Sequence record: MW269952.1
Length of the DNA stretch: 64,000 bases
DNA from: Escherichia phage P479
Direction: 5' to 3' (one strand)
In this document: positions 12,534 to 35,684 of the stretch, piece by piece
How positions within the stretch are numbered: the first letter of the stretch is position 1
How the letters are laid out: the number at the start of each line of letters is the position of its first letter
Notes under the pieces: model-generated
The model's input: only the letters and a program-made list of their open reading frames with translations
The model's database searches: none
What the model was told of the DNA's origin: nothing
Translations under genes and position numbers: made by a program

Positions 12534-12540
12534 TTAAAAA

Positions 12541-12566
12541 GGGACCTTCGGGTCCCTTTGTTTTTA
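12541..12566 (+). terminator. intrinsic terminator (GGGACC-TTCG-GGTCCC plus T-run) after hoc
   Basis: Perfect 6-bp GC-rich stem, tetraloop, followed by TTTGTTTTT. Confidence 0.6.
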
Positions 12567-14248: not shown

Positions 14249-14255
14249 AAATAAA

Positions 14256-14277
14256 GGGACCCGAAGGTCCCTTTTTT
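14256..14277. terminator. bidirectional intrinsic terminator (GGGACC-CGAA-GGTCCC) between convergent rnlB and gene 24
   Basis: Hairpin flanked by A-run upstream and T-run downstream, so it is followed by a U-run on either strand. Confidence 0.6.
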
Positions 14278-15556
14278 AATTTATTTCAGTCAGAACTTTA
14301 GGAAGTTTCACACCAAGCAGTACAGACATATCTGAACGTCCTGCCATCAAATCCATATTTGTTGCATCAATAATACGAGCTTGTTTATCATCAGCAGTCA
14401 CTGTATAAGGGTTAGCTGCTAACGCATAACGAACCATTAATGCAATAGACGGCTGCAAACTTTCTGGGTCAACGACAACTTTGAACGAACCAACATGTTC
14501 AGGGTCTTCCAGGTCAAGACCTTCGGTATAAGGTGCATAAAACAGTGAACCCACCATCTCTTTCCCACCGAAATCTTCTTTAACACCAACAGTCACATAA
14601 TCAAATGGAGTGTTCGTATCGCAATAAAGCGGTAGACCATTATCCAAGAAACCATACGCATTATCGGAGAGATATTTCTCATCTTGTGGACGATGCTTCA
14701 ACCAACCGGAACCAGCCAAAACTGCAGCTACACGCGTAGAAGCAACAACGTATGTTGCGGTGTAAGAAGTTGCCCGCTGAATATGGGAGACCATCTCACA
14801 CATGATTTCGTACAACTTGCGTGAAGCTTCCGGAGAGTTGGTATAAGACAGGTCAATCAGGCCATCATCACAGAGCCCAGCAACTTTATAACGCTTGGAA
14901 ACTGTTACCAGGGATTGCAGGATATCTTTGTTAATTTCATCAGCCATTTCGGTAGCTAACAGGTCTTCCAGGAAGTTTGGAGCGTCAAAACCGTTTGCTT
15001 CCAGGTCCTGGGCCAGTTCCACTGTAACAGTGCTTTTCAGCTTACGAGATTTAACCGGAGCATTCCATTTGTTAACCAAAAATTTAGCTTCGGCAATTTC
15101 AACTTCCTGTGGTCCTTCAAAACGTTCGGTGATTGCAGCTTCGGACATAATACGGATGGTCAATTTAACCATCGCTTCTTGAAGCTGGTCATACTCATCG
15201 CCCGTTGCTCCAGCAAATGGAGTTGCTACCAGCGCTTTATAAACTACATTTTCAAACTGGAACAAATCGTCTTTAGCATAAACTGCGCCAGCAACAAAAA
15301 CCGGAATGGTCGCACGGTCTTTTGCTGATACTGCACCAGAATAGGTTGCACCAGTCTGGAAAGATAATTCATCTTGCTGAGTCAGGTATTTAAGACCGTA
15401 TAATGCCGCCAGTGGCTGGGATGTGCGCTGTTGTGCTACTAAATCGGTGTAAATCAGTTTAGTCGTAGCTCTGGTTAAAGCTACTAGATTCGGTCGACCA
15501 ATCGAAGAACTTGTGGTCGTGGTCGACTCTTTTAAGAGTTCGTTAATTTTAGCCAT
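14276..15556 (-). CDS. 24: capsid vertex protein gp24
   Basis: 426 aa (T4 gp24 427 aa); paralogous to the gp23 fold; directly downstream of gene 23. Confidence 0.9.
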   Translation of the reverse strand: MAKINELLKESTTTTSSSIGRPNLVALTRATTKLIYTDLVAQQRTSQPLAALYGLKYLTQQDELSFQTGATYSGAVSAKDRATIPVFVAGAVYAKDDLFQFENVVYKALVATPFAGATGDEYDQLQEAMVKLTIRIMSEAAITERFEGPQEVEIAEAKFLVNKWNAPVKSRKLKSTVTVELAQDLEANGFDAPNFLEDLLATEMADEINKDILQSLVTVSKRYKVAGLCDDGLIDLSYTNSPEASRKLYEIMCEMVSHIQRATSYTATYVVASTRVAAVLAGSGWLKHRPQDEKYLSDNAYGFLDNGLPLYCDTNTPFDYVTVGVKEDFGGKEMVGSLFYAPYTEGLDLEDPEHVGSFKVVVDPESLQPSIALMVRYALAANPYTVTADDKQARIIDATNMDLMAGRSDMSVLLGVKLPKVLTEIN

Positions 15557-15581
15557 TGCTATTTCCTTTTGTGATATACTT

Positions 15582-15589
15582 TATTTATA
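15582..15589 (-). promoter_or_regulatory. late promoter TATAAATA for gene 24
   Basis: Plus-strand TATTTATA 26 nt upstream of the gene 24 start. Confidence 0.4.
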
Positions 15590-15595
15590 AAAGTT

Positions 15596-15642
15596 GTTTA
15601 CAACCAGATTAAGATAAGACATAATGATTCCATACTGAGTTA
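15596..15642 (+). promoter_or_regulatory. early-type promoter (GTTTAC -35, CATAAT -10) with conserved ATAATGATTCCATACTGAGTTA module
   Basis: GTTTAC 15596-15601 and CATAAT 15620-15625; the downstream 22-nt module recurs at 54469 and 55513. Confidence 0.45.
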
Positions 15643-15666
15643 ACAAACAAAACCTGGAGTTTAAAA

Positions 15667-15948
15667 ATGAACAAAGCAACTTTCCTTCTGAACACCTTTA
15701 AAAATCTGGAAATTGAAGTTATTGCCTTGGTCAACAAATACCCAAATGGTGTTAATGGTAATGCTCTGAACAAACTAGTTAAAAAATATGAAAACTTAGC
15801 ATATGACACTGATTTCTGGTGGAATGGTAATTATTCTACTCACACTAAAGATAAAAATTGTAACTGGTTGAAACTTCAAGAAAACAATGTTAACTTCAGA
15901 GACCTCATCAAGCGCCGGGTAGAAGTTCATTTAAATGGTATGGTATGA
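15667..15948 (+). CDS. hypothetical protein between genes 23 and 24 (opposite strand to both)
   Basis: 93-aa ORF with its own promoter-like element and terminator; occupies the slot where T4 carries segD. Confidence 0.5.
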   Translation: MNKATFLLNTFKNLEIEVIALVNKYPNGVNGNALNKLVKKYENLAYDTDFWWNGNYSTHTKDKNCNWLKLQENNVNFRDLIKRRVEVHLNGMV

Positions 15949-15956
15949 AAACAAGA

Positions 15957-15980
15957 AAGGGACCTCAAGGGTCCCTTTTT
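15957..15980 (+). terminator. intrinsic terminator (GGGACC-TCAAG-GGTCCC plus TTTTT)
   Basis: Hairpin plus T-run after the 15667-15948 ORF; also downstream of the gene 23 stop on the other strand. Confidence 0.55.
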
Positions 15981-15998: not shown

Positions 15999-17558
15999 TT
16001 AAATTCCTTTAACATATACGCGGCGGAAGTAACCGTTCAAGCCAAGGCTGTTAACGATGTCCGGCATGCCGTTCTGAATGCGCTTGGTCGGAGCCTGAGC
16101 AGCAGGGTCAGCAAACGGGTTGATACCGATACCGTAACGGGTTTTGAAGCCCATAACCGGCTGGAAGTTTTTCGGGTCAGAACCACGCAGCGGGGTCAGT
16201 GCAACATATGGTGCGTAGTAGATACCAGCATCCATTTCGTTAGCGCCTTTGTAACCAATGGTGAAGTAATCTGCACGAGCATACTGGTCGATATAGACAC
16301 GGTATTTGCCACCCAGAACACCAGCGAACACAGCTTTAGTGGTGTCAACGTTGAAACCTTTACCCAGACCCTGAGCAGCATAACTAACAGAAGTATCAAC
16401 AGCAGCCAGCACGTTAACTACGTTACGGGAAGCGATGATGAAGTTACCTGCACCACGACCGGTCTGACGAGCGATTTCAGCGGCTTCTTTATCAATCTGG
16501 AACAGTAAAGCTTTGAAGCTTTCACCAGCCCAACGAGCACCACGGATATCAATCGGGTCCTGGAAGTCAAACACACCAGCTTTAGCACCAACGGTGTTGG
16601 TCATACCAGATTTACCAACCTGTGCGGAGTAGTTAATCCAATCGATAACTTCGCGGTTGATTTCCAGCATAATTTCGGTAGCCAGAATACCACTCAATTC
16701 GGCATCAGCATCCATACCGTGAACAGCGCGGAGGTCCTGTGCCAGTTCGATGGAGTAGCTTGCTTTCAGCTGACGGGATTTAGCTTCGATAACTTGTTTG
16801 TCGATGCGGAAGCCCATTTCGTTCCACGGGTTATCAGAGGAACCGTTAAAACCTTCTTGCAGTTCGGCGATGGAGGTAGCCATACCTTCAGCCAATTCAG
16901 CCAGCTGACCAGCTTCGAGCAGTTTGGTAACTTCAGCGTCAAGTTTAGCAGCATCGGTAGCAGCAGCATCAACAGTTACAGCTTCAACAGCCTGGAAGTG
17001 TGCAGAACCGGTTGCTTCGAAGAAGTGAGAATAAATTTTACCAACTTCCAGAACTTTGCTTGCAGCCAGTGCTTCAAAAGTCTTAGCAGCGCCCTGACCA
17101 GAGAACATAGCGTTCGGAGCATACATCGGATGGAAAGCTTCTTTAGCACCAGATGCAACAGGGTCTTTACCGTATACTGCACGCAGTGCAAATACCTGGC
17201 CAGTCGGGTTGTTCAGAGGCTGTACGCCACAAATGTCAAACGCAATCAGATGCGGGATAGCACGACGAACCATACCCATAACTGCCGGCCCAATCTGAGT
17301 TACTGCACCAGAGGTCTGGCCAGCAGCAATATTGGTAGCATCATAACCATGGTCACCACCGATTTCAGCTTCGGTCAGGAAAGAACCAAATGCTTCGGAG
17401 ATTTTTTCGTCACGGTATTCAGGAGCGGTCAGAATATCTTGTTCCTGGTTTTCAAAGATTTTAGCGATGATAGCTTGTTTAGAAGCACCAACGATTTCCG
17501 GAAGAGCTTCGTTTTCCAGCAGAGCGGACCATTTTTGAACTAATGCATTCTTTTTCAT
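15999..17558 (-). CDS. 23: major capsid protein gp23
   Basis: 519 aa; near-collinear with T4 gp23 (521 aa), including the N-terminal propeptide region. Confidence 0.95.
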   Translation of the reverse strand: MKKNALVQKWSALLENEALPEIVGASKQAIIAKIFENQEQDILTAPEYRDEKISEAFGSFLTEAEIGGDHGYDATNIAAGQTSGAVTQIGPAVMGMVRRAIPHLIAFDICGVQPLNNPTGQVFALRAVYGKDPVASGAKEAFHPMYAPNAMFSGQGAAKTFEALAASKVLEVGKIYSHFFEATGSAHFQAVEAVTVDAAATDAAKLDAEVTKLLEAGQLAELAEGMATSIAELQEGFNGSSDNPWNEMGFRIDKQVIEAKSRQLKASYSIELAQDLRAVHGMDADAELSGILATEIMLEINREVIDWINYSAQVGKSGMTNTVGAKAGVFDFQDPIDIRGARWAGESFKALLFQIDKEAAEIARQTGRGAGNFIIASRNVVNVLAAVDTSVSYAAQGLGKGFNVDTTKAVFAGVLGGKYRVYIDQYARADYFTIGYKGANEMDAGIYYAPYVALTPLRGSDPKNFQPVMGFKTRYGIGINPFADPAAQAPTKRIQNGMPDIVNSLGLNGYFRRVYVKGI

Positions 17559-35647: not shown

Positions 35648-35682
35648 TATTTATAGAATAAAAAAGGGACCCGAAGGTCCCT
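35648..35682 (-). promoter_or_regulatory. gene 8 terminator hairpin (GGGACC-CGAA-GGTCCC) followed by late promoter TATAAATA for gene 9
   Basis: Hairpin 35666-35682 with flanking A/T runs; plus-strand TATTTATA at 35648-35655, 28 nt upstream of gene 9. Confidence 0.5.
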
Positions 35683-35684
35683 TG

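Follow-up and report, generated by a model that had tools for sequence, protein, structure and literature searches.

A putative early-type gene cassette between the vertex and major capsid genes of a T4-like phage and its relatives

Anatomy of the locus

The DNA analyzed here, a stretch of 64,000 nucleotides that we call the window, comes from Escherichia phage P479. Over the 801 bases round the locus of interest it shares 99.9% identity with Escherichia phage DK-13 and 99.4–99.5% with the phages RZ and SP18; by this similarity the window belongs to a T4-like phage of the genus Gaprivervirus, as do those three. Two minus-strand genes from the list of open reading frames flank the locus. On the left lies gene 24 (14276–15556), which encodes gp24, the capsid vertex protein, called head vertex protein in the DK-13, SP18 and VR7 records; on the right lies gene 23 (15999–17558), which encodes gp23, the major capsid protein, and figures as the major head protein in the records of the relatives. 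Gene 24 is single in this phage and in DK-13, and there are two tandem gp24 paralogues in VR7, JS10, UP19 and a metagenomic relative. Between the two genes the list contains an ATG-initiated plus-strand frame of 93 amino acids (15667–15948). This ORF is already catalogued and is not new: it carries the GenBank status of a hypothetical protein, it has been annotated since JS98 and VR7, the latter listing it as VR7ORF190c, “similar to JS98 ORF173c”.

Ahead of the ORF, a promoter scan places a sigma-70 promoter of the early type at 15596–15625 on the plus strand, in agreement with 10 of the 12 consensus positions. Its -35 element is GTTTAC at 15596–15601 (in the E. coli register, TTTACA at 15597–15602) and, after a spacer of 17 nt, the -10 hexamer CATAAT follows at 15620–15625. 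The four sequence features of T4-type early promoters are all present: a GTTTAC-like -35, a spacer of 17 ± 1 nt, a TATAAT-like -10 and an AT-rich upstream region. The -35 GTTTAC is invariant in the Gaprivervirus, Dhakavirus and Mosigvirus relatives and reads ATTTAC in PP01 and T4. A Shine-Dalgarno GGAG (15656–15659, +) stands 7 nt 5' of the ATG, with GGAG or GAGGAG at the same place in all the relatives. No significant fold was found in the 5' untranslated region, and a search of the cassette region against Rfam returned no family at threshold, only sub-threshold terminator look-alikes. Within a 4-kb scan, promoter-like matches were not enriched over shuffled sequences (4 vs 6.2 expected), so that the case for this promoter rests on a repeated module and on conservation rather than on the consensus match.

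That module, ATAATGATTCCATACTGAGTTA, is 22 nt long (15621–15642, +). Exact copies lie at 15621, 54469 and 55514, and a copy with 2 mismatches at 54986; shuffled sequences yielded 0 matches. When the four copies are aligned, only the -10 hexamer and ~17 nt behind it prove to be conserved; the spacers and the remainder of the leaders vary. The three other copies precede small plus-strand ORFs of an early-type cluster at 54.4–55.6 kb. A 37-nt module query hits each Gaprivervirus genome in 10–14 places, and the record of Morganella phage MP1 gives the module sequence the annotation “promoter”. By its repetition and position, ATAATGATTCCATACTGAGTTA is best described as the genus-typical -10 and initially transcribed region of an early-type promoter class, and its occurrence in the early-type promoters of the genus supports the “early-type” label of the cassette.

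The distant cluster has some features of its own. At 54386–55560 there are three tandem promoter units with the module, two of them with hairpins just upstream of or overlapping the -35; these two units appear to display the full arrangement of the promoter-early stem-loop (PeSL) cassettes discussed below. The ORFs 54524–54949 and 55033–55476 have the C-terminal motifs AARRA.ID and VQSYASNFRK in common and look like diverged paralogues. Two further early-type promoters, at 50243–50300 (GTGTAC...TATTAT) and 51567–51640 (GTGTAC...TATGAT), stand ahead of small ORFs, the one at 51567 with a partial, diverged module, tatcccatcaactactgag.

Behind the ORF, a terminator scan of both strands detected a bidirectional intrinsic terminator hairpin (15954–15980) of the family AAGGGACC-loop-GGTCCCTT. 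On the plus strand a 12-bp stem is followed by the T-run UUUUUAUUU (-17 kcal/mol, z = -3.25), which is the G+C-rich hairpin and subsequent U-run of an intrinsic (Rho-independent) terminator; on the minus strand the hairpin scores -15.9 kcal/mol (z about -3.3) and its U-run is interrupted. Terminator-like matches as a class were not enriched in the 4-kb scan (5 vs 3.6 expected from shuffles). Near-identical palindromic hairpins of this particular family occur four times in the window (12539–12558, 14254–14273, 15957–15977 and 35664–35683) versus 0.15 expected, and a hairpin occupies the equivalent position in all the relatives that were compared. The one at 15954–15980 would serve both the 93-aa ORF on the plus strand and gene 23 on the minus strand. 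The four-copy family resembles the A3G3...C3T3 stem-loops of the PeSLs of phage nt-1.

The T4-type late promoter box of gene 24, TATAAATA, can be read on the minus strand at 15582–15589; this sequence is the T4 late-promoter consensus. It is set back-to-back with the early promoter, within the latter's AT-rich upstream stretch, and the same box lies at the equivalent place in VR7, JS10, ST0, UP19, TH15, PP01 and T4. Overlapping the start of gene 24 (15555–15580, +) is a weak MotA-box-like ATTGCTATT, followed after 11 nt by TATACT; with a MotA call that is a consensus match with one mismatch only, this site could be a middle promoter for the unit of the 93-aa ORF.

A sequence-only reading of this DNA had proposed a self-standing plus-strand unit of promoter, ORF and terminator, antisense to the late genes 23 and 24. 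It was essentially right in describing an early-type cassette embedded antisense in the late structural operon: the ORF is in the list, the GTTTAC/CATAAT promoter of T4-early type is present and is conserved in the relatives, the module that it had noticed in this promoter is common to the promoters of the early-gene cluster, and the cassette's own terminator was recovered in the scoring of both strands.

The protein and its family

The product of the ORF contains 17 Asn and 10 Lys among its 93 residues and has a pI of 9.3. Its Asn/Lys-rich composition thus agrees with the earlier description, as does its unrecognised character, for the only family that matches, phrog_6003, is one of unlabelled function. 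A short frame with a G+C content of 33% (vs 40.7% in the window) and no match to any family of known function might be thought a chance opening in an AT-rich spacer and no gene at all. This suspicion is refuted from several sides, and the probability that we would still assign to it is negligible. The phrog_6003 HMM is matched over the full length of the product (E = 4.4e-46, residues 1–90 against positions 1–90 of the 90-position profile), and tblastn finds matches in 237 phage records, in all but one of them at a single place. Identity is 90–99% in 31 records, 60–80% in 82 and below 60% in 124; the records inspected in these three bands belong to Gaprivervirus, Dhakavirus and Mosigvirus, respectively, and one outlier at 33% to the Vequintavirinae. 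Pairwise dN/dS ratios (Nei-Gojobori) are 0.17–0.28 within Gaprivervirus and 0.07–0.12 within Dhakavirus, where dS goes up to 0.78; being well below 1, they indicate that the ORF is under purifying selection. The Shine-Dalgarno sequence and the start codon are conserved as well, and an AlphaFold2 model built from a 19-sequence alignment reaches a pLDDT of 93.4 and a pTM of 0.80. The predicted fold consists of a helix (3–24), a second helix (31–48), a hairpin (52–61/67–71) and a third helix (77–90).

Searches for a functional relative of this protein were negative. Foldseek retrieved one family member only from BFVD and nothing from the PDB, and a sequence-profile search of the PDB gave chance matches only. 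Pfam offered only DUF5380 at E = 0.21, NCBIfam contained nothing usable for the ORF product, and 0 of the anti-phage defence families of PADLOC matched at E <= 1. A profile search of 1.84 billion representatives returned nine matches, several of them spurious: the long match P0025 is a repeat protein that aligns only through a repeated NGN-type motif, the other long match, P0026, also aligns in several separate stretches, and a third is a chimeric assembly. By this count the phrog_6003-type family is very small.

Nor did the Pfam search find the GIY-YIG domain of the homing endonuclease that T4 has at this place. Some database names given to the family are misleading. The “glycosyl hydrolase family 25” of phage EAWsc9 (520–801) can be set aside, since a Pfam search at E <= 1 contains no GH25 and the predicted fold is made of helices and a single hairpin. 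A family member from a JGI metagenome (P0017) is named “NADPH-dependent curcumin reductase CurA”, which is implausible at 90 aa.

The gap between genes 24 and 23 in related phages

The sequence-only reading would have lost its footing had the ORF been absent from close relatives or not conserved in them. This was not borne out by the comparison of the 23–24 gap across T4-like phages, in which the relatives inspected for the ORF have it in this very gap. Homologues in the same gap and orientation are found in Dhakavirus (JS10, UP19, C6 and others) and in Mosigvirus (ST0 and O157 typing phage 6), and two metagenomic T4-like contigs also carry the ORF between genes 24 and 23. The surroundings are as constant as the position. 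From the ATG of gene 24 onward, the frame consists of the TATAAATA box (minus strand), (G/A)TTTAC (plus strand), the -10, the GGAG, the cargo, the hairpin and the gene 23 stop; it is common to Gaprivervirus, Dhakavirus, Mosigvirus and Tequatrovirus and is kept in every state of the gap but the deletion in TH57.

Five such states could be distinguished. In the first, seen in every segD-free relative inspected apart from TH57 and RB69, the ORF stands alone. In the second, found in UP19 and the LF82 phages, a segD-like GIY-YIG gene begins 3 nt behind the ORF, within one transcription unit; the UP19 neighbour matches SegE_GIY-YIG, below the Pfam gathering cut-off. In the third, segD stands alone, as in the Gaprivervirus TH15 and in PP01 and T4; in TH15 the homology to the window stops directly after GTTTACA and restarts ~4 nt before the gene 23 stop. 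In the fourth, that of Gaprivervirus TH57 (1425–1500), the slot is empty and the late-promoter region abuts the hairpin. The fifth is that of RB69 (NC_004928, 9292–9532), whose copy has two frameshifts relative to ST0, is annotated as two tiny ORFs, RB69ORF188c and RB69ORF189c, and is either a pseudogene or the product of old sequencing errors. Taken together, these comparisons mark the gap as a slot whose cargo is polymorphic and whose promoter/terminator frame is conserved. Replaced in TH15, deleted in TH57 and frameshifted in RB69, the ORF is dispensable and exchangeable, and with such repeated loss its benefit would be conditional at best. As to the TH57 deletion, it turns the late box of gene 24, TATAAATA, into AATAAATA, and it leaves in place the TH15-type hairpin that is linked to segD; the retention of that hairpin suggests that segD was lost from a TH15-like ancestor.

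The gap comparison with T4 also upheld the earlier statement that the cassette occupies the position of T4 segD. The two cargoes sit in the same slot and both run counter to genes 23 and 24, with the late box of gene 24, the adjacent (G/A)TTTAC -35, the GGAG and the hairpin before the end of gene 23 in common. They differ in that the T4 cargo is a free-standing GIY-YIG enzyme of ~220 aa and the cargo here a 93-aa protein without a nuclease domain; furthermore, the -10/initially transcribed module of the present cassette is specific to Gaprivervirus.

This correspondence also has a bearing on timing. T4 segD has been classed as “early-RNA, middle-protein”, and its protein was quantified in a time course (Wolfram-Schauerte et al., PMC9697503 supplements); a review of 2010 stated that no segD-specific promoter had been found in T4 and expected vanishingly low transcription (PMC2988022). 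Directly 5' of segD, both T4 and PP01 have a sigma-70-like TTTACA, a 17-nt spacer and TATTAT, in a position homologous to that of the early promoter of the window (T4 NC_000866, ~887–859 on the minus strand of the 106400–107500 piece, L023; PP01, ~1953–1981 of L007). This promoter is the likely answer to the puzzle of an early segD RNA from a gene with “no promoter”, and we infer that the slot promoter may be an early promoter throughout the subfamily. Early expression of the 93-aa ORF is predicted both from its promoter and from the classing of T4 segD RNA as early. The literature searched contained no transcriptome of Gaprivervirus, Dhakavirus or Mosigvirus that covers the ORF, nor any direct detection of a transcript or protein in this phage or its close relatives.

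The presence of segD in this slot invites the question of whether the ORF is tied to SegD homing, either as an allele that carries or masks the SegD cleavage site or through a protein that modulates SegD, the two genes being competing or cooperating occupants of the slot. Homologues of segD do occupy exactly this slot in four genera, in UP19 and the LF82 phages as immediate downstream partner of the ORF and in TH15 in its stead. Against such a tie, the ORF stands alone in the gap of every segD-free relative inspected and has its single place in all but one of the 237 records; its product resembles neither nucleases nor nuclease inhibitors, and no homing endonuclease was called near the homologues of the Vequintavirinae type. 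Moreover, Sokolov et al. reportedly found in 2018 no homing of the T4 segD gene by SegD itself. We regard a role of the ORF in SegD homing as unlikely.

A possible mode of action and origin

Given its anatomy and conservation, the purifying selection on the protein, its foldability, the polymorphism of the slot and the dispensability of its occupant, we are confident that the unit is an autonomous, non-essential accessory gene cassette whose site, a cargo slot separating genes 24 and 23, is conserved in the Tevenvirinae; the early timing, the ends of the transcript and the role of the protein are what we infer in addition. The product of the ORF is probably an accessory protein that is made early and is not essential. 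At the onset of infection, the sigma-70 RNA polymerase of the host would initiate at the early promoter, with a start near 15632, and produce a monocistronic mRNA of ~350 nt. Translation driven by the GGAG would yield an 11-kDa basic protein with three helices and a beta-hairpin in its predicted structure, and the hairpin at 15954–15980, a clear terminator signal, would halt the plus-strand transcript ahead of its antisense entry into gene 23. In the late phase the same hairpin, acting on the opposite strand, would terminate the gene 23 transcripts, and gene 24 would restart from its own TATAAATA late promoter, inside the AT-rich upstream region of the early promoter. As to the protein itself, its most likely part is to bind some macromolecule of host or phage at an early stage, in host takeover or in some adaptive function that is useful yet dispensable.

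Such an arrangement could also be imagined to act at the level of RNA or transcription, with antisense or convergent transcription tuning the late expression of genes 23 and 24 and the ORF being incidental. The unit is indeed oriented opposite to the late genes, its early promoter overlaps the region upstream of the gene 24 late promoter, and transcripts that ran on past gene 23 late in infection would be antisense to the mRNA of the ORF. But transcription from this promoter leads away from gene 24, and the -17 kcal/mol terminator lies 18 nt short of the gene 23 end, which makes an effect on gene 24 expression unlikely. The same frame tolerates an unrelated cargo (segD) or, in TH57, none; Rfam offered no family at threshold, and the 5' untranslated region is without significant structure. 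A tuning function of this sort is thus highly improbable, and the stricter version, an element that works as RNA only, is rejected by the purifying selection on the protein sequence, the confident fold and the terminator.

We return to the accessory gene cassette and to the known systems that it resembles, of which the T4 segD locus described above is the nearest. The moron, a concept of Hendrix and Juhala for the lambdoid phages, is a unit of promoter, gene and terminator inserted between late genes. Like a moron, the cassette has an independent promoter and terminator between two structural genes, is missing in some relatives, and has a G+C content below that of its neighbours. Unlike one, it belongs to a virulent phage, where neither prophage expression nor lysogenic conversion comes into question, and early lytic expression is predicted instead. 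The cassette leaves current concepts unchanged; the gene is real but ordinary and of a known kind. What is added is the five-state polymorphism of the slot, its conserved promoter/terminator frame and the likely explanation of the early transcription of T4 segD. On this evidence the T-even-type phages have, between their major capsid and vertex genes, a fixed and framed slot with a variable cargo (the ORF, segD, both or nothing), and with it a natural insertion site for engineering.

The second comparison is with the PeSL cassettes, described in the T4-like phages RB49/phi1, PST/T4 and nt-1/KVP40 (PMC2839356, PMC4122927; Arbiol 2010, Comeau 2014). There too, a strong sigma-70-like promoter with Shine-Dalgarno and ATG and an A3G3...C3T3-type hairpin are both repeated round the genome, the small ORF is of unlabelled function, and replacement or deletion occurs among close relatives. 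The cassette might accordingly be a mobile regulatory unit of this type, inserted, excised and swapped as repeated promoter and hairpin modules recombine, possibly via mini-circles. This proposal concerns origin and turnover and is compatible with an accessory cassette. Both ends of the cassette are modules repeated genome-wide, the promoter module at one and the AAGGGACC...GGTCCCTT hairpin at the other; the promoter module occurs four times in the window and at 10–14 places per Gaprivervirus genome. The known crossovers fall between the -10 and the Shine-Dalgarno/ATG (PMC2839356), which is where the 22-nt module lies. The cargo differs among close relatives by indels or replacement, with the left junction inside the promoter (TH15, TH57), and PeSLs in core regions are said to go with plastic, non-essential genes (PMC4122927). 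Family members exist, moreover, in the unrelated subfamily Vequintavirinae, among small same-strand ORFs and with a hairpin of their own; the copy in the contig L017 has a promoter-like site and a downstream hairpin, and that in ABPH49 a downstream hairpin and no convincing promoter. This setting also fits the accessory cassette.

Other observations speak against PeSL mobility. Neither the sequence nor the terminator scan reveals a hairpin upstream of the cassette promoter; the stem-loop that should lie immediately 5' of the promoter is replaced by the gene 24 start and late promoter, and the hairpin comes only after the ORF. In addition, the block of structural genes round the cassette is conserved, and three genera have the cassette at one and the same position, with a protein identity that falls by genus from about 95% to 61% and 35%. 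This stepwise identity in a fixed gap fits a long vertical residence rather than recent mobility. We do not class the cassette as a PeSL, and consider it possible, at odds well short of even, that it is a mobile unit of that type; the cargo swaps could reasonably be put down to PeSL-like recombination at common modules. A bolder proposal, which we offer as speculation with little probability in its favour, is that the phrog_6003 protein is an early effector with a new fold, directed against a host target or defence system and traded horizontally among coliphages of the Tevenvirinae and the Vequintavirinae; such effectors and segD would compete for the 24|23 slot, a dedicated exchange site with the promoter and hairpin modules as recombination handles.

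For the accessory protein itself, a parallel is offered by Emp/Gp94 of Mosigvirus AV110, one of the small early Tevenvirinae proteins with known action on the host machinery (bioRxiv 10.64898/2026.09.14.751387). The two are alike in their size of ~100 aa, their early-type promoter, their presence in several genera of the Tevenvirinae and a confident fold without functional match, and they are unlike in that their sequences have no relationship. The AV110 early-protein screen chose its genes by homology to T4 (bioRxiv 10.64898/2026.09.14.751387); the 93-aa family has no T4 homologue, so a screen of that type would not have picked the ORF. It is one more conserved and foldable early gene candidate for screens of host takeover or counter-defence.
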